Counted from the stretch's first letter, positions 5,498 to 48,280 are shown. The stretch: DNA of 64,000 nt from an uncultured Candidatus Peribacteria bacterium (GCA_964506115.1 CAZDKI010000003.1:40627-104626), one strand, 5' to 3'. Translations and numbers: made by a program. The notes: generated by a model from the letters alone, not told the origin.

Positions 5498-5549
5498 GTA
5501 CTTATCGCTAAAGCTAGTTTACAATAAGAGTGTACCTTATTTTTCGGGC

Positions 5550-15014: not shown

Positions 15015-15016
15015 GT

Positions 15017-18000: not shown

Positions 18001-18415
18001 AATTATTCTTGTTGGTATAGTAGAAAATGTAGCTATATTTTTAATTGATGCTGCGAATCAAAAGATCAGAGACGATCAATGGGAAGAAAAACGAGCGATC
18101 AGCTTCGCTTCAGGAGTACGTTTCCGACCAGTAATTCTGACAAAGATTACAGCCATTGCGTCTTTAGCTCCATTAGCTTTACTTAGTGAATTTTATCGCT
18201 CAATCTCATTAGTAATCATTTTCGGCCTTATCACTTCAGGTTTCACCTCGTTAATAACTACACCGATTCTATTCATATTCTTCCGTTGGCTTTCTAGAAG
18301 CTTCCAGGCATTACAATGGTGGCATAAAATTCTTTTCTTCCCATTCTTCCCAATTTACATTATTGCAATGGGGATAGCCACGAGACCCCGAGGGAAGTTC
18401 AAAGTGGAAAGTTGA
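15017..18415 (+). CDS. RND family efflux permease (AcrB/AcrD/AcrF type)
   Basis: 1132 aa. Two 6-TM bundles, each preceded by a large extracytoplasmic domain. Blocks LGLVVDPALVILESI and IGLIILVGIVENVAIFLID are typical RND TM4/TM10 regions. Starts 2 nt after the MFP gene. Confidence 0.85.
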   Translation: MSTKKDFNYRITEFFLNNSRFTILTVILFLLISSIALLSLKTTGFPSPKVNLAVISTIYPGASSEVVSRDITKPIEGAIKSISGIETYTSVSRNSSSTVSVTIESNADADSVQSKISTAIRSVKLPTGVDDPQIIVPTVGSPDFIISLAASDKEKLYHNWDQLRDSLNEIPETSSITPLAELKQRVLISLNLPAINNSGLTVEEIQRQVSSIGETLPVISNTTLDGESQTISTKLAGDDIDTLKQLKIYTSANSARGTASSSIPLSDLAQVNIDYYFEGNAISYVGIRTEEAEQVLPALVVTIRAAESADKNAYEEELLAKAAELPEISVVNRPWSIDEHKPVLMITNLASTDSTKEQVHEVVSGLIGSRLKTNSPWANLGWLLGGIQLVFLAMLIFVSWRAAIVSALAIPLSLLFSLVYLFFIGESLNTLVLFSLVLVLGLVVDPALVILESIQRQIDLGHRGKDAALLAVKDVGGGLFLAALTNIIVFAPFGIISGILGQIFGYIPLTIIPATIGSYIVPLVILAWIGSSFLKPTKGKGHDEEKNLWGIAQGLIKLNYRILHSPIWVRLLIIIIALVTPFMVTGSLIGSGKIAFVQFASSQNSKYLVVSGTFLPTKNSTETQAIRRQIAEIIASNPYVKQVFPLSRSLSLQVELLPAEERPGTVSVNIAKELEQKITTKFAPYFFDLRVSVQGNGPPASAFKISLAVKTDDLVVLEKSAKAVGETLAAACKKENTIIIDQQCAATNKLITRVDNGYDGKENKALDITIDRNELYNQQFVAPSGPLTGLLNQQVKRLFNVGDDRKIASIKVDGEDTEVFLDKQSLDPGQAQDLGMALVKNTVGDAYNISAIAALVPNLPKDTIQGVKGQTVGVVQGRIRDEDNNESVSAQITQAVVKFYQDNDFAETKKLGLSTNSIEQYSEGSSAGFAKSFQELLLALLLAIVMSYFVLAIFFGSLGQPLVILFTVPLTFLGVFPALASFTTGEFGFLEIIGLIILVGIVENVAIFLIDAANQKIRDDQWEEKRAISFASGVRFRPVILTKITAIASLAPLALLSEFYRSISLVIIFGLITSGFTSLITTPILFIFFRWLSRSFQALQWWHKILFFPFFPIYIIAMGIATRPRGKFKVES

Positions 18416-18559
18416 AAATTGCCCTGAAGGGGTCCCGTTGGGAAAAGTTATGTAGCCCGAGGCTTAAAATTCTCACTTGGCAATTCTCTATTCGTAATTC
18501 GAAGTAGTTTTGTCCCTCTGCTCAATTTGCTCTATATTGTTCCTGAATTAACTTGTTCT

Positions 18560-24295: not shown

Positions 24296-24852
24296 AGATC
24301 ATTCAGTTTCAACTCGCTGAAAAAACTCTAGTCATCAAAATTAAACGTCAAGCTTATCGTCGTAGTATTAAGCTACAGCATCAATCAGCTGAGTTTAGTG
24401 TCACGGTTCCTGTTGGAATCTCTCTTCAGCAGATTGAAGACTTTCTCCAAAGCCAAAAGAAATGGATGAGTAAAAGGTTAAGCAACCATCTAAAGAAGGA
24501 TATCTTACCGGAGTTGCCTTTTAGTGAAGATACCAAACGAGCAGCAAGACTCTTAGTAATCAGTCTCATTGAACGATACCAAGCTTTGTACCCATATACA
24601 TTCAAACGAATTACAATCAAAGATCTTCACAGCAAATGGGGGAGCTGCTCTGCTCAGAAAAATCTCAACTTTAATTACCGTATTATCGCCCTTCCAAGTG
24701 AACTTGCAGCATATCTAGTAGTACATGAGCTATGCCATCTGGCTGAGCTCAATCATTCAATTCGTTTTTGGCGCTTAGTAGCCAAAGCGTTTCCCAATTA
24801 CCAATCATTACGTAAGAAGCTGCACAATATTGATTTTGAGAAGGTAAGCTAA
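24274..24852 (+). CDS. YgjP-like (DUF45) zinc metallopeptidase
   Basis: 192 aa. WGSCSAQKNLNFNYRIIALPSELAAYLVVHELCHLAELNHSIRFW contains HExxH in the DUF45/M48-like context. Confidence 0.7.
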   Translation: MGRDSAIKIIQFQLAEKTLVIKIKRQAYRRSIKLQHQSAEFSVTVPVGISLQQIEDFLQSQKKWMSKRLSNHLKKDILPELPFSEDTKRAARLLVISLIERYQALYPYTFKRITIKDLHSKWGSCSAQKNLNFNYRIIALPSELAAYLVVHELCHLAELNHSIRFWRLVAKAFPNYQSLRKKLHNIDFEKVS

Positions 24853-26498
24853 AGTAAAGCTTGTTGGTAACAAGCCTCACACAAAACCAGTTCATCTTGA
24901 TACACCGTTTCTAATTGCATCCCGCACTGACTACATGATCGCTTCAGAGCTGGATTAATTTGAAGAATCTTGGATAGATTTTCGATTCGAACCAAAGGAG
25001 CAAGTCTAGGTATCGGTAGCTGAAACCGGCGATAGAAATCTAATTCTGGTTTAGTAATGCGATACTTTCGTTTAGTAACTTCACAAGTAAGCACCTGACT
25101 AAGGATAGTATCTTGAACATCTTCAATACGATCAGGAATCTCCGAAATTGAAGAGTCATCATTCTCGGTAGAATCTTTCCATTTATATCCCCGTTTCAGT
25201 GCCTCTTCACGACTGAGCGGAGCAAATTCATGAGCATATGACTCATTATAATAACGTGGCGACATCGAAGCGGGGAACAGTTCTCCATACTCATCGTGAA
25301 GGTTCATTTGTGTTTTGATTCTTGCTAATAGCTCATAATATTCTTCCTTGGAATACTGTTTATTCAAGATACAATATTCTTTCTGCTTGAGACCGACACA
25401 ACCAAAACAGTCATGACATCCCGCTGACATGTACCCACAATACTCCAAGTCATGCGTATTGCTGGTAGAGTTGAGACACCATTTCAGATTAGTGGAGTTG
25501 TTGGCGGCCACATTACAACTATAAATTTGTTCAGCATTGTTAACCGCAAAACCAGAACAATAAACATCTTTAGCTTTTACTACTCGGACTGAACACTCTA
25601 CATCCTGTGACTCTAAGACAAAAAAGCTATCCCGACAATTTTGTGATTGGTTAATGTAATTACCACTACAGTCTTCACTCTGGTTACCCTGCATAAACTT
25701 TCGAGCAATAGTTTTTCGTTTTTCTTCATAGCTAGCTAACTCCTGTAACCAATTACTATAGCTACCTAAATCTTTAGCTTTCAACTTCACTTCATATTCT
25801 TGTGGTGTACATGCTTTATTCTCAAAATAATATTCTTTACCACTCAAATTAGTGCATCCGTAACAATGCTTCAGATTTCTACAATTAAATAAGAAATATG
25901 AATCCTGACAATTACTACAATTTTCAGCAACTATCAGGTTATAACAACTTTGCACATTGACGCACTGATAACATAATTCTGAACTGAATACACTGATACA
26001 ATCAACTGAATCCTTCACTGAGTTGAGAAAACGACCGAAATAACAATCTTCACAACTAGTACAATTAAAGATTAAGTAACAATTCCGAGCATGTGTGACT
26101 GCATTTACATAATCACAATTTTCTAAGTCAGAAAGCAGCACATGACGACTTGGTAAGGGAACTTTATTAAACAAAGCGGTAAACTGATCAAAAAAAGACC
26201 GGGAGAAATCATAATCTTGACCAAAACTCTGGGGATCCCAACTATCACCAAAAAATATCTCAGGTGTATAGATCGGATGTCCTAATTCTGGAGGGAAATT
26301 GGTTAACAAGGTTTGTCCAGTCATAGAACACTTACCATTGTAAAGATACGTACCATTGTCAAAGCTAGTCACTCGACGAAGTCTTTCAATAGGAGAAATG
26401 GTAGGCAGAGGAATATCATGTTCCTCACAATACCTCAGCTCAGCATCTGAAATAACAAACTCCTTCCCAGAAAGTTTACATGTTTTGGTGATAGCCAT
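24849..26498 (-). CDS. cysteine-rich repeat protein, paralogue 1 of 3 (function unknown)
   Basis: 549 aa, about 34 Cys by my count. No signal peptide or TM segment. Aligns end-to-end with the products of 33737-35377 and 37672-39321. Confidence 0.8.
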   Translation of the reverse strand: MAITKTCKLSGKEFVISDAELRYCEEHDIPLPTISPIERLRRVTSFDNGTYLYNGKCSMTGQTLLTNFPPELGHPIYTPEIFFGDSWDPQSFGQDYDFSRSFFDQFTALFNKVPLPSRHVLLSDLENCDYVNAVTHARNCYLIFNCTSCEDCYFGRFLNSVKDSVDCISVFSSELCYQCVNVQSCYNLIVAENCSNCQDSYFLFNCRNLKHCYGCTNLSGKEYYFENKACTPQEYEVKLKAKDLGSYSNWLQELASYEEKRKTIARKFMQGNQSEDCSGNYINQSQNCRDSFFVLESQDVECSVRVVKAKDVYCSGFAVNNAEQIYSCNVAANNSTNLKWCLNSTSNTHDLEYCGYMSAGCHDCFGCVGLKQKEYCILNKQYSKEEYYELLARIKTQMNLHDEYGELFPASMSPRYYNESYAHEFAPLSREEALKRGYKWKDSTENDDSSISEIPDRIEDVQDTILSQVLTCEVTKRKYRITKPELDFYRRFQLPIPRLAPLVRIENLSKILQINPALKRSCSQCGMQLETVYQDELVLCEACYQQALL

Positions 26499-32467: not shown

Positions 32468-33079
32468 ATGAAAGATAACTTACGCGAAGAAGATAGAGAA
32501 ATTAGAGATATAGTTATTGTAAGAAATATTCCTCAGGAAGAAACTTATATTACTCCTAAAAGTGTACATAAACGATTACAAGATTGGGAGGAAGCAGTAC
32601 GAACAGTAAGCCGAATAGATCTTGTAGCAGCTGTTACTGACGGTGTGCTTTTTGGCTATTTGCTGCATTTAGCAGATGCACCCACTACAAACTATTTTCA
32701 AAAAATATTAGCAGGTTGGTTAATTATTAGTCGAGTTATTGTGGCATCAGTATTTCAAGTCCAGATGAGAAAGATGGAAGAACAAGTACATAATCAAATA
32801 TGCAAAAATGGGCCAACTTTCAGCCATCCCTCTGCAACAATCGAACTACTCAGCCTAGTTACTGCAGCACTATTTATTTCTAACACTGGATTGCTCAATC
32901 AGATAAAATCAATAGGCCATATTATTCAACCTATTGAGTTCTTAGAACTTATGATAATAATCTTCAGAATGCTCAGTAGACTTATTCTCGATGAGCAAGC
33001 CCTTAAAATTGTCAGCGACTATAAAGAGGCCCTAAATCGCGACGATGCTTTACCCCAACAAATGGTACCTAAAAGCTAG
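32468..33079 (+). CDS. hypothetical membrane protein
   Basis: 203 aa with a charged N-terminus and about 3-4 hydrophobic segments. No motif recognised. Its 3' end overlaps recO convergently by 30 nt. Confidence 0.4.
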   Translation: MKDNLREEDREIRDIVIVRNIPQEETYITPKSVHKRLQDWEEAVRTVSRIDLVAAVTDGVLFGYLLHLADAPTTNYFQKILAGWLIISRVIVASVFQVQMRKMEEQVHNQICKNGPTFSHPSATIELLSLVTAALFISNTGLLNQIKSIGHIIQPIEFLELMIIIFRMLSRLILDEQALKIVSDYKEALNRDDALPQQMVPKS

Positions 33080-33730
33080 CTCTAAAAAATTTTGCACCTG
33101 TTCAGATTGGGGACTCTCAACTAAAGGTGCATTAGCTAAAGATAAAGAATGTAAGTATTGATAAACTAAGCGATCATCTTCTTTGTGCGCTGAAGAACAA
33201 TGTGAACATAAAAATCCTTCATAATTTTGAGCATGTTCAGCTACTTCTTCCAGGTCCTCTCGACAAGATTGGCATATCTCAGTGGAAATACCAAAACCAG
33301 TTAAAAATAATAGCTTATACAAGAACCATAACCACAAACCCTGCGGATTAGGGTAACGTTCAGCTTGAACTAAAAATTGTTGCAGTAAGAAATAAACTTC
33401 TGGATTCTCATCCTCATCAGATGTTGCTCTAAGTACTGCCTTGGCTGCTCTCTCAGCATACTGCCAATGCGTCAATGAATGGCGCAAATAGGGAAACCAG
33501 GTAACGGTAGTAGCTTGAATTAGAGTAGGTAAGTGAGATTTGCGTGTAATTTCAAATTGACCCTCCACAAAGTGGTCAATGATACCACCATATTTACTAG
33601 TAGCTTTGCGCACACCACGTGCCATGAATTGCACTTTGCCAGCCTCTTTGGTAAAGACCGTAACAATGCGATCAGCCTCAGCATAATTGGTAATTTTGAG
33701 CACAATACCCGTCCAAATTTGTGAATACAT
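33050..33730 (-). CDS. recO: DNA repair protein RecO
   Basis: 226 aa. GIVLKITNYAEADRIVTVFTKEAGKVQFMARGVRK (OB-fold N-terminus). C-terminal CQSC...CSHC zinc motif. Confidence 0.8.
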   Translation of the reverse strand: MYSQIWTGIVLKITNYAEADRIVTVFTKEAGKVQFMARGVRKATSKYGGIIDHFVEGQFEITRKSHLPTLIQATTVTWFPYLRHSLTHWQYAERAAKAVLRATSDEDENPEVYFLLQQFLVQAERYPNPQGLWLWFLYKLLFLTGFGISTEICQSCREDLEEVAEHAQNYEGFLCSHCSSAHKEDDRLVYQYLHSLSLANAPLVESPQSEQVQNFLELAFRYHLLG

Positions 33731-33736
33731 AATAGG

Positions 33737-35377
33737 CTAACTCACCACCTGTTGGTAACATCCTTCACATAAGACAGGTCGTTCTGCTGGATTATACACT
33801 GACTCGATTGCTTTATGACAATTACTACAGGCAATATTTTTGATTTCTTCTACTCGAAAGATAGCCGCTCTTTCATGTAAGCGATTCAGTGGTGCCACAT
33901 GGGGGAGGGGAATATTGTTGTTTCGATAAAAACTCACTTCAAGTTTAATGAATCTGAAGGCTTTGCCACTCATCTCACATGTAAATGATTCACCCACTAT
34001 ACTCTCTGAAACATCCTTAATATTGCTTGGGATTGTTCTAGTTGCTGGAGAGGCCTCTGGGACTTCATCCCTCCAATCAAAACCTTCCTTGATTGCTTGT
34101 TCCTTAGTAAGTGGGAAAATAATAGCAGCATCACTTTGGTTGTAATAAACCTGAGACATTTGCAGTGGTAAATAATCTTGCCACTCGTTTTTCTCACTCA
34201 TTTTCTGTTTAATTGCTGCCACAATGCGCTCGTAATCTTCTTTTGAGTATTGCTTATTGAAGATACAGTACTGTTTCTTTTTGAGTCCAACACAACCAAA
34301 ACAGTCACTACAACCTTGAACACAGTATAAACAAAACTCTAGATTTTTACTGCCAATACATTCAATACAAAACTGTAAATTGTAGTTACCCACACCTGCA
34401 TGAGTATTGTAGAGCAATTCACCAGAAGTGTTATAAGCAGTAGCAAAACAATCCTTACATTTATTGGTACCAATACTATTTTCTACATCCTGTACTTCCA
34501 TGGCATGAAAGACATTATTAGCATTGCTACTATTATGGATATAGTTACCTCTGCAATTTTCATTGCTTTTACCTTGCATAAACTTTCTCGGTTGCTGCTT
34601 TTTAAACTCGTTAAATTTAGCCAATTCACTCATACGAGTTGCATAATCACCTAAATCTATTGCCCCCAAACGCTGCTCGTACTCGTCCTTGGTCAATTGC
34701 TCATTATACCAACAGTATTCTTTATTAGTGAGATTAGTACAGCCATAACAGTGCTTACAACTCTGACAAGACTCCAAGAAATAACTATCAGAACAGTGAT
34801 TGGCACTATCTACATGCTGCACATTGTAGCAGTGATCGATGTCAGTGCAGGCATAACACAGTTCACAGCCTTTAGCAGAAATAGTATCCAGGACATTCTT
34901 GCACTCAAAAATATTCCAACCAAACATACAATCTTCATTGAAGGTATTGGCAAAGGTCAAATAACAGTTTTTCAAGTTAGCACCACCATTCACATACTCA
35001 CTATTGAGAGTAGTAGAGCGAACAATAGTTAAATTAGGTAAAGGTACTTTTTTATAGAGACTCTCTAGCTGAGTCCAGAAAGATCCGCTCAAGTCATACT
35101 CCTGACCATAACTCAAAGGATCCCATTGTTCACTATTCCAAATATCATTGTCATAAATAGTAAAACCTTTGTCTGGAGCAATACAGCTCAAAATCGGCTT
35201 TTTGGTAAAAGCACAAGTGGTATTGTAGAGAAACGTACGATTACGAAAAGCTAGTACTCGCTTCAACCGCTCGTTAGGATGGATTGTAGGTAGTGGATAA
35301 CCACGATCACGACAATAATTAGCTTCACGATCAGTAATTACAAACTTTCTACCAGTTAATTTACAAATAGCATCCAT
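33737..35377 (-). CDS. cysteine-rich repeat protein, paralogue 2 of 3 (function unknown)
   Basis: 546 aa, collinear with paralogues 1 and 3. Its stop lies 6 nt upstream of the recO start on the same strand. Confidence 0.8.
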   Translation of the reverse strand: MDAICKLTGRKFVITDREANYCRDRGYPLPTIHPNERLKRVLAFRNRTFLYNTTCAFTKKPILSCIAPDKGFTIYDNDIWNSEQWDPLSYGQEYDLSGSFWTQLESLYKKVPLPNLTIVRSTTLNSEYVNGGANLKNCYLTFANTFNEDCMFGWNIFECKNVLDTISAKGCELCYACTDIDHCYNVQHVDSANHCSDSYFLESCQSCKHCYGCTNLTNKEYCWYNEQLTKDEYEQRLGAIDLGDYATRMSELAKFNEFKKQQPRKFMQGKSNENCRGNYIHNSSNANNVFHAMEVQDVENSIGTNKCKDCFATAYNTSGELLYNTHAGVGNYNLQFCIECIGSKNLEFCLYCVQGCSDCFGCVGLKKKQYCIFNKQYSKEDYERIVAAIKQKMSEKNEWQDYLPLQMSQVYYNQSDAAIIFPLTKEQAIKEGFDWRDEVPEASPATRTIPSNIKDVSESIVGESFTCEMSGKAFRFIKLEVSFYRNNNIPLPHVAPLNRLHERAAIFRVEEIKNIACSNCHKAIESVYNPAERPVLCEGCYQQVVS

Positions 35378-35519
35378 AGCATGGAGATTACTTAACCTTT
35401 TTATAGAGGAGTTACTAAAAAAAGGAAAGAAAAATCAAGCTAAATTTAGGTGAAGTGTAAGGTTGGTAGTTACAAAAATTGTTACAGTTAAAAATTAACT
35501 CAACGGTTTGAGTTTTCTA

Positions 35520-35629
35520 ATTCCTCTCCTAAATCTCAGTCTAAGTCTTTGGTCTTATCTCGGACAATATTGAAGTGGCAATCTTAGACTGAGACTAAGA
35601 TTGAGACTAAGCATCCCGCATACGCGAGA
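35520..35629 (-). repeat. tRNA-Gln 3' trailer module
   Basis: On the minus strand, CCA is followed by the hairpin CTCGC-GTAT-GCGGG. Next comes CTCAATCTTAGTCTCAGTCTAAGATTGCC, compare tRNA-Arg trailer CTCAATCTTATTCTAAGACTGCT. There is also a 12-bp inverted repeat, TCTCAGTCTAAG at 35534-35545 with CTTAGACTGAGA at 35583-35594. Confidence 0.55.
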
Positions 35630-35703
35630 TGGTTCGGGGATAGGGACTCGAACCCCAACTCACAGCTCCAAAGGCTGTTGTCCTACCATTAGACGATCCC
35701 CGA
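35630..35703 (-). tRNA. tRNA-Gln (anticodon UUG), CCA encoded
   Basis: Reverse complement: TCGGGGA TC GTCT AATGGTA GGAC A ACAGC CTTTGGA GCTGT GAGT TGGGG TTCGAGT CCCTA TCCCCGA A CCA. Confidence 0.9.
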
Positions 35704-35722
35704 TCAGAATAAACACGCGCAT

Positions 35723-35751
35723 TTTATAGCACGCTCTGGGGGATTGAGCAA
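35723..35751 (-). promoter_or_regulatory. putative promoter of tRNA-Gln (TTGCTC-17-TGcTATAAA)
   Basis: On the minus strand, TTGCTC (35751-35746), a 17-nt spacer ending in TGC (extended -10), and TATAAA (35728-35723). Lies 19 nt upstream of the tRNA 5' end. Confidence 0.45.
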
Positions 35752-35832
35752 TCACAATCCTAACCTGGTGATTTAGAATCATTTTCAATAACTAAACTAA
35801 TCGGATATGATCACATTAGTTAATTTTTTACT

Positions 35833-37542
35833 ATGCTCAAACGGTTGCGGATTGTTGGTTTAACGATAGCAATCCTATCTTTACCAATTTCACCAGTAAG
35901 TGCCCACAACTTTCAAGATGTGCGTCATCAAGACTGGTTTGCTTATTATGTAGATCAATTAGAAGACGGGAGGATCATCAATACTGATACAGCTAACTTT
36001 TATCCCAATCGTTCCATCACTCGCGCTGAATTGGCTAAGATGGTAGTAAAATCGGCACAGTACAAAGGCCAACTACCAGTGGCCATGGTAAGTAGTCAAT
36101 CGGTATTTTGTGATGTCCTAGGTGATAATTGGGCACATGAATTCGTCTCCATTTTAGCCAGCAAAGGCGTAAACGGAGTGAGTGACACTAGCTGCAATCT
36201 TGGCAAAAAGTTTTTGCCTAACCAACCAGTGACTAGAGCAGAAGCGCTGAAGATCATGTTTCTGGTCTATGGTGTAGATGTAAATGGCAGTAGTACTTTC
36301 TCTGATGTCAGCCAAAGTAGCTGGTTTAATAGTTATGTTGCCACCGCTGTTAGATTAAGTTTAGTAAATGGTTACCCTGATCGAACCTTTCGTCCTAATG
36401 GCTTACTGACTAGAGCAGAAATGAGTAAAGTGGTAACCAATTTGATGAATCAAACTGACCACCCAGCAACCGCTGCCCCAACGCCCACACCACAACCAAC
36501 TGATACCAGTGCTGATGACAGCTTCACTCTACCAACTATCAATACTCCCCACGGTAACAACCAAGTGAATGTCCGAACCGAAGCGGAACTACGTGAAGCT
36601 ATTGGTAATGCCGAACCTGGAGATGAGATTATTCTCGCAGCAGGAACCTATAGACTCTCCCGTCAATTATGGATAGATAAACAAGGAACGGAAAGCAATC
36701 CGATTATTATTCGTTCTGGAGGTGAGAAGTATAGTGCAAAACTAACAGGATCTTCAGAAGAAGGGATTAATATTGGTGATGGTGCAGCATACTTGGTCAT
36801 CGATGGCTTAGAAGTGTTTGGTATGGGCGATAACAATATCCATGTGCAAAATGCGCACCATATTACTTTGCAAAATATCAAATCATATGATGCGGGACGT
36901 AATGGGGATGTAATCAAAGTAAACCAAGCTCATCACATCACAGTGCAGAACACAGAGTTGGCTCGCTCTGGTGCTCGTCCAGGTTGTCCTAGTGAAAATT
37001 GTTGGCAAGAGTTAATCGACTTCGTGGACACCGATGATAGTGTCATTCGAGATAATGTAATGACCGATTTCGGTAACCTGGCTGGTTATGTAAAAGGCGG
37101 CAGTACCAATGTTCTGATTACAGGCAATACCATCACTGGTCAACGCAGTGGAGCAGGGGATCCGTCATGGGGTATTGGAGGTTGGACAGATAGAGAACTA
37201 CTAAGAGGTCGCCAATACGAAGCCATCAATGTCCGCTTCGAAGATAATATCATCACCAATAGCAGCTATGGTGCATTAGGTATTTATGACGCCAACAATG
37301 TCCAAATTCGCAATAATACCCTCAACAATAACCGTGGGACTTTGATTGAGTTCAAAGCCGGTAATGCACCTAGCGAAGGTAGCGATAATATCACTATTAC
37401 TGCCAACCGTTTTAATAATAATCAATTAGATCCCGATACCTTGTGTGTCATCTCCAGCCACAATGCTTCAGGTATTGCGATCAGCAATAATTCAGGTAAT
37501 ACTACAGCCGCTGTAAGTGCGACAACTTGTGTGACAGACTAA
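35833..37542 (+). CDS. SLH-domain surface protein with right-handed parallel beta-helix (pectate-lyase-fold) domain
   Basis: 569 aa. Signal peptide. Three SLH repeats (FQDVRHQDWFAYYV..., FCDVLGDNWAHEFV..., FSDVSQSSWFNSYV...). P/T linker. PbH1-like repeats: NIHVQNAHHITLQNIKS / VIKVNQAHHITVQNTEL / NVLITGNTITG / NVQIRNNTLNNN. Confidence 0.8.
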   Translation: MLKRLRIVGLTIAILSLPISPVSAHNFQDVRHQDWFAYYVDQLEDGRIINTDTANFYPNRSITRAELAKMVVKSAQYKGQLPVAMVSSQSVFCDVLGDNWAHEFVSILASKGVNGVSDTSCNLGKKFLPNQPVTRAEALKIMFLVYGVDVNGSSTFSDVSQSSWFNSYVATAVRLSLVNGYPDRTFRPNGLLTRAEMSKVVTNLMNQTDHPATAAPTPTPQPTDTSADDSFTLPTINTPHGNNQVNVRTEAELREAIGNAEPGDEIILAAGTYRLSRQLWIDKQGTESNPIIIRSGGEKYSAKLTGSSEEGINIGDGAAYLVIDGLEVFGMGDNNIHVQNAHHITLQNIKSYDAGRNGDVIKVNQAHHITVQNTELARSGARPGCPSENCWQELIDFVDTDDSVIRDNVMTDFGNLAGYVKGGSTNVLITGNTITGQRSGAGDPSWGIGGWTDRELLRGRQYEAINVRFEDNIITNSSYGALGIYDANNVQIRNNTLNNNRGTLIEFKAGNAPSEGSDNITITANRFNNNQLDPDTLCVISSHNASGIAISNNSGNTTAAVSATTCVTD

Positions 37543-37671
37543 AATCAAAGTGCAAAGAGCAGAGATCAAAGAGTGATGTTCATTAATTCAGGCTTTAGGC
37601 CTCAAAATTCAAGCCTCGACTAAATAACAACAATTTTCAATCAAGTTTTAGAACCTAAAATCTCCCTCCCC

Positions 37672-39321
37672 ATGCCTGTCATTACCAAAACTTGTATCAC
37701 TAGTGGAAAAACATTCACTGTGTCTGAAGCAGAACAAAAGTATTGCAATGAACGAAATATTCCATTGCCACAACAGCATCCATTTGAACGGTTGAAGCAT
37801 ATAGCAAATTTCCGCAATCGCATTCATCTCTACAATACTACCTGTGCCAAGACAATGAAGCCGATTTTGAGCTGCTTTCCACCTGAGAAAAACTATACCG
37901 TTTATGATATCGAAGCCTGGAGTGGAGATGGCTGGGAAGCTACTGACTACGGTCAGAATTATGATCCAACCCGCTCTTTCTGGGATCAATATGAAGAACT
38001 CCTGAAAAAAGTACCACTGCCCAACTTGAATGTAGTCAGTGGCACAATGGAAAACAGTAATTATGTGAATGGGGCAATGAATCTCAAAAACTGTTACCTC
38101 TGTTTCTCAACATTGGATAGTGTTGATTGTATGTTTTGTTGGGCAACATTCAACTCCCAGAATATTGTTAATAGCATCAACTGTTACTTCAGCGAGATTG
38201 CTTACGACTGCCGTGATATTGAAAAATGTTATAATTGTTTTTATATCGAGAGCTGCCAAAACTGTAGTGATAGCTACTTCTTGTTTGGATGCCAAAGCTG
38301 TAAACACTGTTATGGTTGTATAAACCTTAATAATAAAGAATATTGTTGGTACAATGAACAATTGAGTAAGGATGAATATGAGAAACGTCTTGCTGAGATT
38401 AATTTAGGCAATATTCAGGTAGTAGGCGCTGAGAGAAGTAAATTTAAAGAGTTTTCTAAACAATTCCCTACCAAATATTATCGTGGGAAAAGTATTGAGA
38501 ATAGTGATGGTAACTACATAAGTAATTGTAAAGACACTCATAATGCCTTCTTTTGTACAGATTGTGTTGATATCGAGCACTCTTTAGTTTTATTAAAGAG
38601 TAAGGACTGCTTCGGTATCGTTTCTTCAAAGGCGTGTGAATTGACCTACAACTCTCAAAGCGGCATGAATTATAATTGCCAATATTGCAACGAAAGTCTG
38701 GTAGGTAATCGCAATTTAGCATGGTGCATGTTCACTAATGGTAGTACCGATTGTTTTGGTTGTGTCAGTCTGAAGAAAAAACAATATTGCATACTCAACA
38801 AACAATACTCTCAAGAAGAGTATTTCCAATTGGTAAAACAAATTAAACAAGCAATGATCGACAGTGGAGAATATGAAGATTTCTTTCCACGAAGATTAAG
38901 TCCATTCTACTACAACGAAAGTGATAGCATGATTTACTTCCCAGCTACTAAGGAAGAAGCAACCAAAAATGGATTTAGTTGGAAAGATGAAAATATATCG
39001 CTACAAGAGAGCAGCTACGTACCACCGGACGACATTTCAGCGGTTACAGATGATATTTTGCAGCAAACATTAATTTGTGTAAAAACAGGGAAAAAATATC
39101 GACTAACGAAACAAGAGTTAGATTTTTATCGCAGATTCAAAATACCAGTTCCCCGCATTGCTCCACTAGAACGAGTGAATAACTTTGCTCATCAAATGTT
39201 TGATATGAGAGAGCTAACCACTATTGCTTGCAGCCAATGTCAAAAATCCCTCACAAGCGTATACAACCCGGCTCAACAACAAGTACTTTGTGAAGAGTGT
39301 TTCCTAAAATCAGCCTTTTAA
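37672..39321 (+). CDS. cysteine-rich repeat protein, paralogue 3 of 3 (function unknown)
   Basis: 549 aa. Roughly half of positions are identical to paralogue 2 by eye over the N-terminal 240 aa, for example KKVPLPNL, NLKNCYL, CSDSYFL..CQSCKHCYGC.NL.NKEYCWYNEQL.KDEYE.RL. Confidence 0.8.
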   Translation: MPVITKTCITSGKTFTVSEAEQKYCNERNIPLPQQHPFERLKHIANFRNRIHLYNTTCAKTMKPILSCFPPEKNYTVYDIEAWSGDGWEATDYGQNYDPTRSFWDQYEELLKKVPLPNLNVVSGTMENSNYVNGAMNLKNCYLCFSTLDSVDCMFCWATFNSQNIVNSINCYFSEIAYDCRDIEKCYNCFYIESCQNCSDSYFLFGCQSCKHCYGCINLNNKEYCWYNEQLSKDEYEKRLAEINLGNIQVVGAERSKFKEFSKQFPTKYYRGKSIENSDGNYISNCKDTHNAFFCTDCVDIEHSLVLLKSKDCFGIVSSKACELTYNSQSGMNYNCQYCNESLVGNRNLAWCMFTNGSTDCFGCVSLKKKQYCILNKQYSQEEYFQLVKQIKQAMIDSGEYEDFFPRRLSPFYYNESDSMIYFPATKEEATKNGFSWKDENISLQESSYVPPDDISAVTDDILQQTLICVKTGKKYRLTKQELDFYRRFKIPVPRIAPLERVNNFAHQMFDMRELTTIACSQCQKSLTSVYNPAQQQVLCEECFLKSAF

Positions 39322-41546: not shown

Positions 41547-41572
41547 CTGTAGGTATTCAAGAATACCTACAG
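41547..41572. repeat. perfect 26-nt palindrome overlapping the stop codon of the RAYT-like gene
   Basis: CTGTAGGTATTCA/AGAATACCTACAG. Arms of 12 nt around a central AA. No following U run on the gene strand. Confidence 0.8.
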
Positions 41573-42096
41573 TACTTCCTTTCCCACTTTTTAGGATTAT
41601 TAGCTATATAAGCTCTAATATTCCACAGTGCGTGCTCATTACGAATTATCCTTTCGTAATAGCCTTTTTTCCACAATGAAGAACCAGTAGTTCCATTCAA
41701 TAAGTTCACATGCTTCGCAGTTTGCATCTTAAATTTTCCAATCAAAAGACTAAGCATCATGTTGCGTCTTGAGTGTGCCGCCGTCTCCCCCTCGTTCACT
41801 GATTCATGAATCAGTGAACCTTGAACGCCTCTCGGCACATCTTTGATCCAGGTGATGCCGGGCACGTGATCGGGCATTATGACGAAAGCATCCAATGCAC
41901 ACCTGGTGTTCTCTTTGGCTAACTGTCTCCAATAATACTCACAGACATAGGCGGCCGGAGTCCAAGATAATTTACCATTAACTAATTGACCGAGATTTTT
42001 TCTTCTTTTGTGAGTAACAAAGGTAATAAAATAGCCTGCAGGATCAGAGTAGTCCCAAGAAAGTAATCGACGCATCAAACTCTTTAAGTAAATCAA
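41557..42096 (-). CDS. IS200/RAYT-like Y1 (HUH-family) transposase homologue with degenerate HUH motif
   Basis: 179 aa. YFITFVTHKRRKNLG, IMPDHVPGITWI (HVH expected, HVP found, CCC instead of CAC), and WKKGYYERIIRNE ... YIANNPKKW (catalytic Tyr region). Confidence 0.7.
   Translation of the reverse strand: MIYLKSLMRRLLSWDYSDPAGYFITFVTHKRRKNLGQLVNGKLSWTPAAYVCEYYWRQLAKENTRCALDAFVIMPDHVPGITWIKDVPRGVQGSLIHESVNEGETAAHSRRNMMLSLLIGKFKMQTAKHVNLLNGTTGSSLWKKGYYERIIRNEHALWNIRAYIANNPKKWERKYCRYS
41794..41819. repeat. perfect 26-nt palindrome inside the RAYT-like ORF
   Basis: GTTCACTGATTCA/TGAATCAGTGAAC. Shares the central ATTCA-GAAT core with the palindrome at 41547-41572. Confidence 0.8.
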
Positions 42097-42364: not shown

Positions 42365-44347
42365 CTATTTATTCTTGCCCTTCTTCAACTGTTTTTCCAG
42401 CTCATCAATCTGATCACGAATTTCAGCTGCTTTTTCGAATTCCATTTTGCCAGCTGCAATATCCATTTGTAGTTCAAGCTCGGCAATCACTTTAGCCAAC
42501 TCTTCATGCGGCAAAGTTTGTAAAGCCTGACCATCTTGCTTCAGCTCATCATGTGGCATGATATCTCGGATCTCCTTGATAATAGTCTTTGGCGTAATAC
42601 CATGCTCTATATTGTAAGCTTCTTGGATAGCACGACGACGATTCGTTTCATGTAACGCTTTTTTCATTGAGTCTGTCATACGATCGGCATACATGATTAC
42701 TTGACCGTGAGCATTACGAGCCGCACGACCAATAGTCTGGATCAACGCCATTTCTGAACGTAAGAAACCCTCTTTATCAGCATCCAAAATGGCTACTAAA
42801 CTCACTTCAGGTAAATCCAAACCTTCACGGAGTAAGTTGATACCCACTACTACCTCAATTACCCCTAAACGTAAATCTCTTAAAATATCCAAGCGGACTA
42901 AGGTTTCAATGTCGGAGTGAAGATACTTCACTCGTATACCTGCTTCTTGCAAATACTCAGTCAAATCTTCTGCCATACGCTTAGTCAATGTGGTCACTAA
43001 TACTCGTTCATCCACCTTAATTCTTTCGCGAATCTCATTGAGTAAATCATCTACTTGATTTTGCGTTGGTTTAACAGTAACCACTGGATCAAGTAAACCT
43101 GTAGGACGAATCAATTGTTCCACTACAACCCGACCTGATTTCTCTAATTCATACTCACGGGGTGTTGCTGATACATAGACTACCTTGTTGATCTGCCCTT
43201 CAAATTCAGTGAAGGTTAATGGACGGTTATCATAAGCAGATGGCAAACGGAATCCATAATCAACCAAACTCTTTTTGCGAGCCAAATTACCATTAAACAT
43301 CCCGCCAATCTGAGGAACAGAAATATGTGACTCATCAATAAACATCATGTAGTCATCTGGAAAATAATCCAGCAATGTCGCTGGTTGTTCTCCGGGTGAC
43401 CGATTGCCTAAATAACGAGTGTAGTTCTCAATACCACTACAGTATCCGGTCTCCATCATCATTTCCAAATCATACTCCGTTCTTTGTTTGAGACGTTGCG
43501 CTTCAACAATCTTCCCCATACCATTGAGCTCTTTCAGTCTCTCTTCTAGGTCTATCTTGATTTGCTCCACCGCTCTTAGTACTGCTTCACGAGAAGTAAC
43601 TGCGTGTTTAGCTGGGAACACTTCTACTGATTGCAGACTAGCGACAATTTCACCAGTAAGTGTATCAAACTCATCGAGCGTTTCTATCTCATCACCAAAG
43701 AATGCCACGCGGACAGCAGTATCACTATAGGTAGGATAAATCTCTACGACATCGCCACGTGCTCGAAAAGTACCACGGACAAAAGCTAACTCATTACGTT
43801 TATATTGTAAATCTGCTAAATGTCGAAGCAATTTTTCACGCTTATAACTCATGCCCACACTAAGCTTCTCCGCCACATTGCCATATTCTTCCACTGATCC
43901 CAAGCCGTAAATACATGACACTGAGGCTACGATAATGACATCTCTGCGAGTCAAAAGATTCTTAGTCGCAGCATGACGATACTTATCAATCTCTTCATTG
44001 ATAGAAGCATCTTTTTCAATATAAGTATCTGAGCGAGCAATATATGCTTCTGGCTGATAGTAATCGTAATAAGAAACGAAGTAATTGACTGCATTATCAG
44101 GGAAGAACTCCTTAAACTCAGAATAAAGTTGGGCAGCTAAGGTCTTGTTATGAGCAAGAATCAAAGTAGGCTTCTGAATCTGATTGATCACATTAGCCAT
44201 AATAAATGTCTTACCGGTACCGGTAGCTCCCAATAAAGTCTGATGTACTTTCCCTTCTTCAAGCCCTTTGATCAAAGCAGCCAAAGCCTTTGGTTGATCA
44301 CCCGTCGGTGAGTACGGAGCAACCAATCTAAATGGTTTGTTTTCCAT
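42365..44347 (-). CDS. uvrB: excinuclease ABC subunit B
   Basis: 660 aa. [36 protein letters not shown], and the C-terminal UVR motif [11 protein letters not shown]. Confidence 0.95.
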
Positions 44348-44524
44348 GATGAAATAATTTTTCGCATTCTAACAGACTCAAGCTGAAGACGTAAAGCTTT
44401 TCATCCAGCTCAAAGCTAAATTCTAAAATCTAGATTCCACACTTCACATCAAAATTGCTCCTGCTCACAAAATAGAGTAAAGTTGCGGCACGAAATTTCC
44501 CTCACAGCCCTTTATCTTCTTAAT

Positions 44525-47500
44525 ATGGCTACCCCCGAAAAAAAGTCCGCATCTAAGATAGAACCAAAGACCATCTTTGATCCTGTTCAAGTAAAACAGT
44601 CCTTCCCAGATCTTGAGAATGACATTTTAGATTTTTGGAAAAAAGACGATGTCTTCAAATTAGTACAAGACAAACGAACAGGTAGTAAACCGTTCATTTT
44701 CTACGAAGGTCCTCCAACTGCCAATGGCAAACCAGGAGTACACCATGTGATCGCTCGCGTATTCAAAGATGTAATTTTGCGATATAAAACCATGCAAGGC
44801 TTTTATATTGAACGTAAAGCCGGATGGGATACACATGGGCTACCAGTTGAGTTGCAGGTAGAAAAAGAATTAGGAATTTCAGGTAAGAAGCAAATTGAAG
44901 AATACGGTATCGAAGCCTTCAATAATAAATGTAAAGACTCAGTTCATAAGTTCACTCAAGCCTTTGAAGTGATGACCGAGCGTATCGGTTACTGGGTAGA
45001 TATGAAAAACCCGTATGTAACATACTCTCCCGATTATATCGAATCAGTATGGTGGTGTCTCAAACAAATTTGGGAAAAAGGTTTACTGTACCGTGATCTC
45101 AAAATTGTTCCTTATTGTTGTCGTTGTGGTACCCCACTTTCTAGTCATGAAGTCGCACAAGAGTATCAGACAGTAAAAGATATGTCTCTGACAGCTCTTT
45201 TCAAAATCATCGATCAAGCTAAATTTAGCAAGGATAGCGAGACTGTTTACTTTGCCGCTTGGACTACTACACCTTGGACCTTGGTAGGTAACCTCGCGCT
45301 CTGTGTCGGACCTGATATCGAGTATAGCCAAGTAAGAATAGATCAAAATACAGCAATCATCATCGCTACAGATCGTATTGCAGCTTACAATGATGTCCTG
45401 CCAAAAGATGAAGAGGGGAAACCACAGTACACCATTGAAGCTACGTACCGAGGCACCGATCTCGTCGACACTAGTTATGAAGCTCCTTGGAATTATTACA
45501 CAAGCGAAAAGAAAGGACATTATGTAGTAGCTGAACCATTTGTCACTACTACCGACGGTACTGGTATCGTTCATATTGCTCTCTATGGTGAGGATGATTA
45601 TCAAGTGATCCAAAAATATGACTTACCGAGACTGCAACATGTAGATAAGGAAGGCCGATTCATCGCTGGCAGCGGTCCATATAGTGGTCGTTACTTCAAA
45701 GAAGAAGGACTAGATGTGGAAGTACTCAAAGATTTGGCAGCACGAAACATGCTCCTCAAAAAAGAAAAATATGAGCACAACTATCCTCACTGTTGGAGAT
45801 GTAAAACACCACTGATTTATTTTGCCATCAGCTCTTGGTTTATTCGCATGTCACAATTGAGAGATGAATTGGTCAAAAACAACCAAGAGATCAATTGGCA
45901 TCCAGAACATATCAAAGAAGGACGATTCGGTAATTGGCTCAATGAAATTAGAGATTGGGCGGTGTCTCGCAATCGGTACTGGGGCACCCCATTACCGGTC
46001 TGGGAATGTCAGTCATGTCACAAGACCTTGTGTGTTGGCTCTATGATCGAACTTCAAAAAAAGAGCGGCCAGGATTTGCCAATCAACGACAAAGGGGAAC
46101 CAGACCTCCATCGTCCTTATATCGACAATATTATTATTGCCTGTGAATGTGGTGGCACTATGAAAAGAGTAGAAGAGGTAATTGACTGTTGGTTTGACTC
46201 CGGTGCCATGCCAGTCGCTCAAGTCCACTATCCATTCGATATCAAAGACCAAGAGTTCCAGGAACACTACTTCCCAGCGGATTATATCTGTGAAGCAATC
46301 GACCAAACTCGGGGTTGGTTCTATACATTATTAGCTGTCAGCACTGCTATTTGGAATAAAACCGCTTATAAAAATGTCATCTGTCTCGGCCATATCCTTG
46401 ATGATAAAGGGATCAAGATGAGTAAGTCTCAAGGCAACATCGTCGACCCAATGGAGGTAGCGGATAAACATGGAGCCGACGCATTGCGTTGGTATATGTT
46501 TAATGCTTCGCCCCCAGGTCAACCACGTAATTTCTCAATTAGCTTAGTTGAACAATCGCTACGTAAGTTCCAACTGACATTGTGGAATGTATACTCATTC
46601 TTCGTCACCTACGCTAACATTGATCAATTCCAACCTCAGAAATTCACCAAGGTAATTAGTGTCCAACACACTGAGTCAGAAAATATTCCTCTTGGTGTAG
46701 TCGCTAGTGACAAAGATCAAGTCTACCATCTCACTGAGAAAGGACATCGTGATGCTGAAGCATTGGCCCAAGAATTCAAACATAGTAGCCTCGATAAAAT
46801 CTTCGTTGCCCCCCTCAATCGCACTCGAGAAACAGCTGAAATTATTAGCCAATTCCACCAAGTACCTGTGATTGATGATGAACGCTTACGTGAGCTTAAC
46901 TTAGGAACATTTGACGGTAAATTGGCAGCTGATGTAGAAACATACTTAAGCAGCCTTACCAATCAATATGCGCAGAAATTTCCTGAAGGTGAATCATACC
47001 TAGATCTAGAAGAACGCGTCTTTGCTTTCTTGGATGAGATCAAAGAAAACTGCGCAGGTGAAACGATCCTGATCGTCGCTAATGGTATGGTAAAAAAAAT
47101 GATTGATAAATACTTCAATCACACACCATCAGATCAAGTAATTGCTAATAAATTTAGCCTTGGCAGTATCGATCGCTATGTGATGCCATGGAGTGAACAT
47201 AAACTCGATCGATGGATCCTTTCTGAACTCCATGCCATGGTCAAAGAAGTAGCAATTATGCTCGACAATTACCAAATCTGGGAATCTACCAACAAAATTG
47301 AGAAATTTGTTGACAATCTTTCCAACTGGTATGTACGTAGATCGCGCCGCCGCTTCTGGAAAGCAGAAAATGACCAGGACAAAAATGGTGCATACCAGAC
47401 TCTCTATCATGTACTGACCACTTTAGTAAAAGTAATTGCACCATTCGTTCCTTTTGTCAGTGAGCACATCTATCGCAACTTAGTAGGTAAAGAATCTGTG

Positions 47501-48280
47501 CATATGGCCAGCTTCCCTCGTAGCATAGATAGTTTCATCCGACCAGCACTCAATGAGGAAATGGCATTCATGCGTAATATCGTTAATTTAGGCCATGCTA
47601 TTCGTGCTAGTCAGAAATTGAAAACACGTCAACCGCTACAGTCAGCAACAGTTATTGCTCCTATGCGTTTGCAAGCTGAGGAACTCCAAGTGATTGCGGA
47701 AGAACTCAATGTCAAAACCGTAACCATGACTAGCCCCGAACAAGCGACTATTCAAAAAGGTATCAAACCAAAAGCAGCCATTATTGGCCCTAAATATGGC
47801 AATGATGTCCAAACAATTATGCAAGCTGCCCGTGATCATAATGTGACCTTCGAAGATAATGGCACTGTTACTGTGGCTGGCAAATTCACCTTAGCTCCAG
47901 ATGAGTTTGAGGTTGTTTACAAAACTGAACCAGGTATGAGCATCATGAGTGAAGGCAATATCGTAGTCACACTCGACACCAATCTCACGGATGAATTGGT
48001 ATACGAAGGATATGCTCGTGAAATCGTACGTGCCATCCAAGACATGCGTAAAGCAGCCAATTACCAAGTAGACAGCCGTATCAATGTCAGCCTCGAAGTA
48101 CTGAGTGAACCTGAATTAGCCCATAAAGTAATCACTACCTGTGGTTCTTATATTGCTCGTGAGACATTGGCCGACACCCTCAATGCGGCCAATATCATCC
48201 CTGATAGAGAAGAAAAGATCGCTGTAGACAAACTAGAATTAGCGATAAAGATCTGCCCAAGTCAGAAAAGCAATAGCTAA
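44525..48280 (+). CDS. ileS: isoleucine--tRNA ligase with inserted degenerate histidine-phosphatase-fold domain
   Basis: The ATG at 44525 (MATPEKK...) is preferred over the TTG at 44483. PPTANGKPGVHHV, the CP1/editing region, KMSKSQGN, and the anticodon-binding region LDRWILSEL ... NWYVRRSRRRFW. An extra ~170-aa domain is encoded at about 46684-47200. Confidence 0.9.
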   Translation: MATPEKKSASKIEPKTIFDPVQVKQSFPDLENDILDFWKKDDVFKLVQDKRTGSKPFIFYEGPPTANGKPGVHHVIARVFKDVILRYKTMQGFYIERKAGWDTHGLPVELQVEKELGISGKKQIEEYGIEAFNNKCKDSVHKFTQAFEVMTERIGYWVDMKNPYVTYSPDYIESVWWCLKQIWEKGLLYRDLKIVPYCCRCGTPLSSHEVAQEYQTVKDMSLTALFKIIDQAKFSKDSETVYFAAWTTTPWTLVGNLALCVGPDIEYSQVRIDQNTAIIIATDRIAAYNDVLPKDEEGKPQYTIEATYRGTDLVDTSYEAPWNYYTSEKKGHYVVAEPFVTTTDGTGIVHIALYGEDDYQVIQKYDLPRLQHVDKEGRFIAGSGPYSGRYFKEEGLDVEVLKDLAARNMLLKKEKYEHNYPHCWRCKTPLIYFAISSWFIRMSQLRDELVKNNQEINWHPEHIKEGRFGNWLNEIRDWAVSRNRYWGTPLPVWECQSCHKTLCVGSMIELQKKSGQDLPINDKGEPDLHRPYIDNIIIACECGGTMKRVEEVIDCWFDSGAMPVAQVHYPFDIKDQEFQEHYFPADYICEAIDQTRGWFYTLLAVSTAIWNKTAYKNVICLGHILDDKGIKMSKSQGNIVDPMEVADKHGADALRWYMFNASPPGQPRNFSISLVEQSLRKFQLTLWNVYSFFVTYANIDQFQPQKFTKVISVQHTESENIPLGVVASDKDQVYHLTEKGHRDAEALAQEFKHSSLDKIFVAPLNRTRETAEIISQFHQVPVIDDERLRELNLGTFDGKLAADVETYLSSLTNQYAQKFPEGESYLDLEERVFAFLDEIKENCAGETILIVANGMVKKMIDKYFNHTPSDQVIANKFSLGSIDRYVMPWSEHKLDRWILSELHAMVKEVAIMLDNYQIWESTNKIEKFVDNLSNWYVRRSRRRFWKAENDQDKNGAYQTLYHVLTTLVKVIAPFVPFVSEHIYRNLVGKESVHMASFPRSIDSFIRPALNEEMAFMRNIVNLGHAIRASQKLKTRQPLQSATVIAPMRLQAEELQVIAEELNVKTVTMTSPEQATIQKGIKPKAAIIGPKYGNDVQTIMQAARDHNVTFEDNGTVTVAGKFTLAPDEFEVVYKTEPGMSIMSEGNIVVTLDTNLTDELVYEGYAREIVRAIQDMRKAANYQVDSRINVSLEVLSEPELAHKVITTCGSYIARETLADTLNAANIIPDREEKIAVDKLELAIKICPSQKSNS

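Follow-up and report, generated by a model that had tools for sequence, protein, structure and literature searches.

The analysed stretch of DNA comprises 64,000 nucleotides from an uncultured Candidatus Peribacteria bacterium (GCA_964506115.1 CAZDKI010000003.1:40627-104626; hereafter the window) and carries three genes of a previously undescribed, cysteine-rich protein family. They are located at positions 24849–26498 on the minus strand (paralogue 1, 549 aa), 33737–35377 on the minus strand (paralogue 2, 546 aa), and 37672–39321 on the plus strand (paralogue 3, 549 aa). An earlier reading of the same DNA without database searches (the sequence-only reading) had described three intact and collinear open reading frames (ORFs) of these lengths, which was confirmed, as each gene starts with ATG, contains no internal stop codon, and encodes a protein that aligns with the other two from end to end. 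Paralogues 2 and 3 were 49% identical, while paralogue 1 was the most divergent copy in both the alignment and tblastn, sharing 41–42% identity with the others in tblastn and 42–43% in the end-to-end alignment. The E values of these comparisons (1e-137 to 1e-179) far exceed chance. At the DNA level, the paralogues align solely in short patches of 68–80% identity, so that a recent duplication can be dismissed for all three, and tblastn found no further family copies or fragments in the window. The motif blocks quoted by the sequence-only reading were present, with the restriction that KKVPLPNL is exact in paralogues 2 and 3 only and reads NKVPLPSR in paralogue 1. Cysteine content amounted to 6.0–6.4% with CxxCxxC spacing, and the isoelectric points (pI) of the three proteins ranged from 5.2 to 6.0. 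As had also been stated before, neither a signal-peptide-like N-terminus nor a hydrophobic or transmembrane segment was detected in any of them (maximum of a 19-residue Kyte-Doolittle window about 1.0). In the following, paralogue 2 serves as the reference for all residue numbers.

Profile comparison with hhalign revealed that the centre of the protein consists of two homologous halves, M1 (residues c. 130–240) and M2 (residues c. 278–392), with a probability of 99.8% (E=1.3e-29). M1 was mapped to residues 126–240 (34658–35002, minus strand) and comprises about eight coils of 12 residues with Cys/Ser ladders and the end cap CKHCYGCTNL..KEYC. M2 was mapped to residues 266–395 (34193–34582, minus strand) and ends in the coils CFGCVGLKKKQYCIFNKQYSKEDY. 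The core displayed a 12-residue autocorrelation peak, with C or S at positions 3, 9, and 12 of the register and an aromatic/hydrophobic pair at positions 4–5. Entropy in M1 was likewise periodic, with about 1.1–1.4 bits at positions 1–3, 5, 6, and 12 and 2.2–2.9 bits at positions 7, 8, 10, and 11. According to per-coil entropy, the first coils of M2 are the most variable stretch between paralogues. Its last coils cap the second solenoid, and their sequence (CFGCVGLKxKxYCILNKQYSKEEY) is conserved more strongly than any other motif of the family. A full-length AlphaFold2 model of paralogue 2 was compact and of high confidence (pLDDT 84.3, pTM 0.84), and a core-only model based on 122 sequences revealed beta-strands every six residues (pLDDT 77). 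As shown by these models, the core would be formed by two homologous narrow beta-solenoids of 12-residue coils with Cys/Ser and aromatic ladders and one variable face.

Foldseek searches with the full-length model (against PDB and BFVD) and with the core-only model (against PDB) gave no significant match. The non-significant matches of the core model were all beta-solenoids, and the best local superposition was obtained with the Tenebrio antifreeze protein (PDB 1EZG; TM-score of 0.47 on the target, root-mean-square deviation of 3.1 Å over 52 columns, E=3.7, probability 0.35). This protein of Tenebrio molitor (TmAFP) is a secreted, disulfide-bonded, and ice-binding protein of 84 aa with a Thr-Cys-Thr face. 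Its coil of 12 residues, the distance of six residues between Cys, and the narrow, two-sided solenoid are shared with the family. However, apart from the lack of significance of the structural match, the family proteins are cytoplasmic, swap Cys for Ser, have no TxT face, and hold two solenoids inside a multidomain protein of 550 aa. As modelled, the core is a new example of a beta-solenoid with 12-residue coils and has no solved relative.

Among 61 members, half-conserved Cys were mostly exchanged for Ser (C30/S23, S29/C27, and C26/S23) and in some cases for Ala, Val, or Thr. Since Cys and Ser interchange at positions of the register, these residues are to be seen as buried ladders of small residues and not as metal ligands, and most of the central Cys are thus predicted to be ladder residues. 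Twelve central Cys were conserved in at least 80% of the members and cluster near the solenoid caps (195, 204, 210, 213 and 349, 359, 362, 371), while there was almost no conserved His.

The solenoid core is flanked by two related modules. The N-terminal module (residues 4–80; 35138–35368, minus strand) is a basic, degenerate double treble-clef of the zf_Tbcl plus zf_Tbcl_2 type, which has lost its zinc ligands apart from C5 and C55. The C-terminal module (residues 463–546; 33740–33991, minus strand) is also a double treble-clef, with a degenerate first knuckle and a second knuckle displaying four Cys, namely C517, C520, C537, and C540 (33758–33829). Homology between both modules (residues 4–80 and 466–541) was detected by hhalign with 99.7% (E=1.5e-25), and the cross-comparisons used as controls were negative. 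In each module, zf_Tbcl (PF13451) is followed by zf_Tbcl_2 (PF23477/TIGR04272, CxxC-x17-CxxC). One relative (P0091) has kept all Cys and scored above the gathering cut-off of PF13451. Paralogue 2 reached 16.2 bits against PF23477 (cut-off 27) and 15.3 bits against TIGR04272 (cut-off 36), paralogues 1 and 3 matched neither of the two, and 24 of the 61 members matched PF23477 at E<0.1 (best 1.3e-6). Of the four ancestral Cys4 sites, the last was found intact in 56 of 61 members as well as in each of the window copies, and its three counterparts in only 6, 1, and 4 of the 61, respectively, and in no window copy. At the zf_Tbcl sites, the window copies read CTHE/CSSE/CSHE in the N-terminal module (intact in 6 of 61) and CSAN/CTAV/CTAE in the C-terminal one (intact in 4 of 61). 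Judging from these residues, the window copies lack the two CxxC motifs of a zf_Tbcl zinc site, the homology of the modules being clear nevertheless, and the sole predicted zinc site conserved throughout the family is the Cys4 site at the extreme C-terminus. Both end modules are basic (median pI of 8.7 and 9.1), while the core and a helical region (residues 396–462) are acidic.

Near a family array in another genome, we also detected a stand-alone protein of 98 aa (L086:189-485) with eight Cys and one complete zf_Tbcl plus zf_Tbcl_2 unit (E=6e-18 and 1.5e-14). It matched the profiles of the N- and C-terminal family modules in hmmsearch (E=8e-12 and 1e-15) and in hhalign (97–98%). By appearance, it represents the original unit from which the end modules were built. 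Compared to the known unit of about 50–100 aa and eight Cys, to which both end modules are homologous and with which they share the Cys4 of the last knuckle, the family differs in that it carries the unit twice, once on each side of a core of about 380 residues, and has lost three of the four sites. Searching PDB sequences with intact modules resulted only in weak LIM-like matches (CRP2, 1IBI, E=0.005), and a LIM score of 20.0 bits in Pfam, below the cut-off of 22.9, was obtained with the module consensus only. LIM domains are a eukaryotic family of protein-interaction modules built of two consecutive zinc knuckles. The last knuckle of the family weakly resembles the second LIM finger; in contrast to the CCHC and CCCC sites of LIM, however, the family has a single complete site of the Cys4 type, and treble-clef knuckles in general would probably show such a resemblance.

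The family proved to be very large. The best database matches of the window proteins were 58–62% identical. A word-indexed search revealed more than 5,749 significant matches, of which the listed ones were nearly all about 545–560 aa long and every named one was annotated as hypothetical protein. They originated from Ca. Abawacabacteria, Gracilibacteria, the "Patescibacteria group", and a few metagenome-assembled genomes (MAGs) of Deltaproteobacteria/Bdellovibrionales. An exhaustive profile search against 1.84 billion cluster representatives (50% identity) resulted in 5,379 clusters with E<=1e-3, of which 2,391 reached E<=1e-30, and the 150 listed of the 5,379 were almost all 520–595 aa in length. 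In a GTDB scan with one genome per species, at least 595 matches were obtained, headed by Peribacteria/Peregrinibacteria, Gracilibacteria, and Abawacabacteria, and a few homologues were from Bdellovibrionota MAGs. Among 2.9 million viral contigs, the family was essentially absent, with one fragment only, and is therefore not a mobile or phage family.

No whole-protein match was found in Pfam, NCBIfam, PADLOC, PDB sequences, or by Foldseek. Profile scans of the three proteins, 61 relatives, and the module consensus against Pfam, NCBIfam, PHROGs, and PADLOC gave nothing but the terminal zinc knuckles. A PDB sequence search with the family profile had zero matches at E<=10, and PADLOC did not reveal any similarity to known anti-phage defence proteins. 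In the searchable literature, no description of the family, of its Pfam/TIGR accessions, or of DUF8128, a domain of the neighbouring ATPase described below, was found. The family is thus real, very large, and previously undescribed, and is mainly found in Gracilibacteria-type Patescibacteria (Abawacabacteria, Gracilibacteria, Peribacteria/Peregrinibacteria). The parts are of recognisable kinds, namely treble-clef knuckles and a 12-residue beta-solenoid, while neither the whole protein nor the gene cluster described below matches any described system. The sequence-only reading had not assigned the proteins to a characterised family either, and its mention of similar zinc-ribbon-type ORFs in Patescibacteria turned out to be right with regard to both the source of the homologues and the C-terminal treble-clef zinc finger.

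Two apparent links were rejected. One paralogue matched phrog_15341 in PHROGs (3.4e-6, Cys repeat region only), and Campylobacter phage CC_R7 was the lone phage match in tblastn; both were traced to composition, i.e., to a low-complexity CxxCxx repeat protein. In CC_R7, this is a protein of 240 aa consisting almost entirely of CxxCxx hexapeptide repeats and encoded between the portal and DNA ligase genes (L084:3974-4696). The "cysteine-rich proteins of Peribacteria" reported previously (PMC4736985) are large secreted proteins of about 1,650 aa with signal peptides and are not identical with the family. Outside the window, a protein of 731 aa from a high-GC organism (P0122) combined an N-terminal GNAT acetyltransferase with a full-length family protein, which is either a real fusion or a gene-calling artefact.

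Evolution of the family was studied using 176 full-length members, which stem from 77 loci. Tandem copies next to each other were only 29–57% identical (median 42%), and 128 of 149 members had their closest relative in another genome. Orthologues of paralogue 2 with 94% and 82% identity were intact and revealed ratios of non-synonymous to synonymous substitutions (dN/dS) of 0.033 and 0.018, compared to 0.033 and 0.017 for recO and 0.016 for gyrB on the same contigs. M2 showed the largest difference between paralogues, yet the tightest constraint between orthologues (omega 0.008). Since adjacent copies are diverged, the best relatives are mostly found in other genomes, and orthologues are constrained, the paralogues are ancient, stable subtypes under strong purifying selection, presumably each with its own conserved job, and not a contingency family with fast turnover. 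This supports the old and maintained expansion proposed by the sequence-only reading, and the decay in close relatives that would have spoken against it was looked for and not seen.

Tandem arrays are the norm in the family. Of the 77 loci, 57 harbored 2–7 copies within about 13 kb, and one locus (L079) revealed seven copies in 21 kb. Two further genes recurred next to the family genes. A TrmB-family helix-turn-helix (HTH) regulator was identified in 25 of 77 loci, in 17 of them divergent from a family gene, and a VirD4/TrwB-like ATPase of about 747 aa was found within 6 kb of the family genes in 16 of 77 loci, in 13 of them directly adjacent on the same strand. The domains detected in this ATPase were T4SS-DNA_transf, TrwB_AAD_bind, TraG-D_C, and an N-terminal DUF8128. 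It lacks a transmembrane segment and is 51–72% identical across orders. In the usual layout, the TrmB gene on the minus strand is followed by a variable number of family genes and finally the ATPase gene on the plus strand. Four further contexts on long contigs annotated with Pfam all included TrmB and/or the ATPase. In three of seven annotated contexts (L087, L088, L089), the ATPase adjoins family genes, two of them in the order TrmB, two family genes, ATPase, and one with the ATPase between two family genes, while a fourth context consisted of two TrmB-headed arrays. Gaps at the junctions were mostly below 100 nt, and in L089 the junction overlaps, as the ATPase gene starts at the very coordinate at which the family gene ends. 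A reciprocal search revealed the family in 18 of 80 ATPase-anchored metagenomic loci, including the loci of all six closest ATPase orthologues, and a second ATPase subtype was found to interleave with the family in the order ATPase, family gene, ATPase. We rejected the idea that the neighbour of the ATPase is a single conserved orthologue, as the adjacent members do not belong to one orthologous subtype; the linkage therefore outlived the turnover of the arrays. The internal duplications, the arrays, and the TrmB and ATPase neighbours, which are the sole functional leads, had been missed by the sequence-only reading.

In other Patescibacteria, which encode a homologous ATPase (about 40% identity, 880–1040 aa), the gene 5' of it specified in 31 of 64 cases a conserved protein with Sigma70_r4 and HARE-HTH domains and a length of about 350 aa, which is predicted to bind DNA. 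By appearance, this is another undescribed conserved gene pair (L095-L169, e.g., L095:5672-6721). A recent survey counted 5,713 homologues of VirD4-type type IV coupling proteins (T4CPs) in 2,918 Patescibacteria genomes, of which only 148 were located near virB4, described very few relaxases, and left exaptation of the T4CP homologues open; T4CP genes of conjugative systems usually adjoin the genes of their substrates (PMC12102498). In relatives, the position of the family genes directly 5' of a VirD4/TrwB-type ATPase, mostly with short gaps or overlaps, resembles such pairs of a T4CP (VirD4/TraG/TrwB) and an adjacent substrate gene. In contrast to these, the family-linked ATPase is soluble, possesses an N-terminal DUF8128, is located away from virB4, and is accompanied by many paralogues. 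Compared to pairs of relaxase and T4CP, the family lacks a relaxase-like HUH/Tyr motif set, and the window does not show such a pairing.

Based on this gene order, we tentatively favour, well short of confidence, the view that the family proteins are paralogue-specific recognition or adaptor proteins, or cargo, of the orphan VirD4-like ATPase, probably acting on nucleic acid. The paralogues would form a panel of specificity factors, adaptors, or cargo for this coupling-protein-like ATPase, each recognising its own conserved target by the variable solenoid face, while the basic end modules might contact nucleic acid or the ATPase itself. A DNA-related role would be favoured since the Sigma70_r4 and HARE-HTH protein holds the slot 5' of the homologous ATPase in other Patescibacteria. 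Going further, the family could comprise the partner proteins still missing for the orphan VirD4-type ATPases of Patescibacteria. A soluble DUF8128-T4CP motor would then rely on paralogue-specific solenoid/zinc-finger proteins, in place of relaxases, for selecting and handing over distinct nucleic-acid or protein substrates, with the Sigma70_r4/HARE-HTH proteins as the equivalent in other Patescibacteria classes; this extended version is speculative and appears rather doubtful to us. If true, it would represent a new kind of substrate selection in relaxase-poor, host-dependent bacteria. Patescibacteria account for much of the diversity of bacteria, yet only a minority of their lineage-specific genes can be assigned a function. 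In their genomes of about 1 Mb, few genes are duplicated as heavily as this family, with up to 7–8 copies of 1.65 kb per locus, which is about 1% of the genome. As its subtypes are as tightly conserved as recO or gyrB, they must serve some need of these organisms. The operon-like linkage provides a concrete and testable candidate partner for the T4CP ATPases surveyed in 2025 that are unlinked to type IV machinery and whose role that survey had raised as a question, and the family is a useful target for structural biology and a new Pfam family.

Several observations weigh against this view. The functional link between family and ATPase rests on gene order, which could have been passed on as synteny surrounding a site of in-place array expansion. 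The ATPase was present within 6 kb in only about 20% of the family-anchored loci and was not found within 10 kb of the seven-copy array L079 or of the locus L080, and the single-copy homologues in non-Patescibacteria genomes (L048, L071, L078) had no such neighbours. In the window, none of the three copies adjoins a TrmB gene or the soluble ATPase. The related gene of the window (5448–7952, plus strand; Pfam TrwB_AAD_bind and DUF87, tblastn 2e-112) encodes a membrane-anchored VirD4/TrwB-like ATPase of 834 aa with a transmembrane segment near residue 37, a distant paralogue with about 31% identity to the array-linked one, which is 17 kb away from the nearest family copy and adjoins none. Moreover, no nucleic-acid-binding domain is evident in the family, the zf_Tbcl and zf_Tbcl_2 Pfam families are functionally uncharacterised themselves (a literature search found no paper on them), and the weak LIM-like similarity would instead suggest protein binding.

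Alternatively, the proteins could act on their own as regulators or scaffolds that bind nucleic acid or protein, with a separate target (DNA, RNA, or protein) for each paralogue via the solenoid face and the basic end modules, and the adjacency to ATPase and TrmB would be historical synteny only. We consider this possible, though with somewhat less conviction, as basic modules around an acidic core, ancient subtypes at housekeeping-level constraint, weak LIM-like similarity as in a protein-interaction module, and the placement of the window copies, and of many arrays, among housekeeping genes and away from the ATPase would all fit. It is at odds, however, with the order of family gene and ATPase, which recurs across orders and with two ATPase subtypes, mostly with gaps below 100 nt or overlaps, and persists despite the change of the adjacent subtype. 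In genomes with little long-range synteny, this recurrence is hard to credit to drift alone. Cargo of a different kind would be effectors, translocated by the VirD4-like ATPase through a type IV system of Patescibacteria into host or prey cells, in which case diversity would reflect host targets. A T4CP-type neighbour, T4CP genes adjoining those of substrates in conjugation (PMC12102498), solenoid repeat proteins without a Sec signal in host-dependent bacteria, multi-copy arrays, and the few homologues in MAGs of the predatory Bdellovibrionota would be in line with this, but we regard it as unlikely. The ATPase linked to the arrays is not anchored in the membrane, the annotated neighbourhoods revealed neither virB4 nor channel genes, and the strong purifying selection on orthologues shows no sign of an arms race; in addition, no C-terminal tail extends past the zinc knuckle as a typical charged translocation signal, and the compact fold would need unfolding for transport.

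The sequence-only reading had named a function related to metal, redox, or nucleic acid as possible. To derive a metal or redox role from the richness in Cys is an over-reading in view of the Cys/Ser swaps in the ladders and the single Cys4 site conserved family-wide. Proteins binding several ions or Fe-S clusters for storage, sensing, or electron transfer would account for the Cys content with its CxxCxxC spacing, the 12 conserved central Cys near the caps, and the one bona fide Cys4 knuckle. With Ser, Ala, Val, or Thr taking the place of half-conserved Cys in the ladders, three of four ancestral Cys4 sites lost in nearly all members including all window copies, no invariant ligand set of the kind CxxCxxCxxxCP, almost no conserved His, and no match to a ferredoxin, rubredoxin, or metallothionein family in Pfam and NCBIfam, such a role is nevertheless very improbable. 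Even less credible is a self-assembling structural or cytoskeletal beta-helix protein, e.g., bactofilin-like filaments or an intracellular scaffold. Two stacked beta-solenoids, high copy number, and a soluble, cytoplasmic nature would agree with it, while no similarity to bactofilin or any other polymer-forming family was found, conserved solenoid caps, globular flanks, and the compact model contradict open-ended polymerisation, and many diverged subtypes would be unexpected for a filament subunit.

In the window, the three copies are dispersed into housekeeping neighbourhoods. Paralogue 1 is flanked by a convergent gene for a YgjP-like metallopeptidase and a divergent SDR gene. Paralogues 2 and 3 are divergent, with a tRNA-Gln(ttg) gene (35630–35703, minus strand), 5' of paralogue 2 on the same strand, and a gene for a secreted protein with S-layer homology (SLH) and right-handed beta-helix domains (35833–37542, plus strand; Pfam SLH, Beta_helix, Chondroitinas_B), 5' of paralogue 3, in between, exactly as the sequence-only reading had it; the fold family of this beta-helix protein is unrelated to the paralogues. 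Directly 3' of paralogue 2 follows recO (33050–33730, minus strand; Pfam RecO_N/RecO_C), which is context and not part of the family and indeed starts 6 nt past the stop codon of paralogue 2 on the same strand. A search against Rfam gave four tRNAs and nothing else.

The window is syntenic with an Abawacabacteria MAG (GCA_016207805.1, locus L080), where the order is gyrB, recO, an unrelated gene of 279 aa, tRNA-Gln, the SLH/beta-helix gene, four family copies, and DUF5652. The slot of paralogue 3 is thus occupied by a four-copy tandem array, while that of paralogue 2 is empty, and the closest match of paralogue 2 in this locus is the fourth array member (58%). Judging by this clear synteny and by the best matches of 58–62% identity, the window comes from an Abawacabacteria-like Patescibacterium. 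The adjacency of a family gene to recO does not occur in L080, but the junction is kept in the close relatives L082 and L083 (6 or 5 nt). Since it is kept there and no terminator-like site was found between both genes, co-transcription of paralogue 2 and recO, as proposed by the sequence-only reading, is plausible within the genus; the linkage it had highlighted is a local rearrangement at the genus level and not a trait of the family. Promoter-like sites around the locus occurred only at chance frequency and are therefore uninformative on transcription units. On the other strand, an ORF of 203 aa without family match (32468–33079, plus strand) runs towards recO, shares 30 nt with its 3' end, and is kept at the same position in both close relatives (205 and 200 aa).

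Some other genes of the window should be mentioned. The membrane-anchored ATPase gene is flanked by small ORFs without family match (4606–5157 and 7994–8557), and a scan of window ORFs revealed neither virB4 nor any other type IV gene. At 13104–18415 (plus strand), the gene for a HlyD-like adaptor (636 aa) is followed by one for an AcrB/RND-type transporter (1,132 aa), a tandem pair of the tripartite-efflux type in a Patescibacterium that is expected to be monoderm. Besides the SLH protein next to paralogue 3, a second one is encoded at 18527–20353 (plus strand); one of the two is fused to a pectate-lyase-type right-handed beta-helix, and their domains suggest S-layer or cell-wall-anchored surface enzymes. 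A weak remnant of an IS200-like Y1 transposase was located at 41557–42096. The window is also rich in DNA-repair genes, with uvrB (42365–44347, minus strand), uvrC (49545–51461, plus strand), and uvrA (58757–61627, minus strand) all within 20 kb, plus recO and gyrB. Finally, an isoleucyl-tRNA-synthetase-like class I synthetase of 1,265 aa (44483–48280, plus strand) harbored an inserted histidine-phosphatase domain (His_Phos_1, residues 748–901, E=4e-30), which separates the catalytic core from the anticodon-binding domain.

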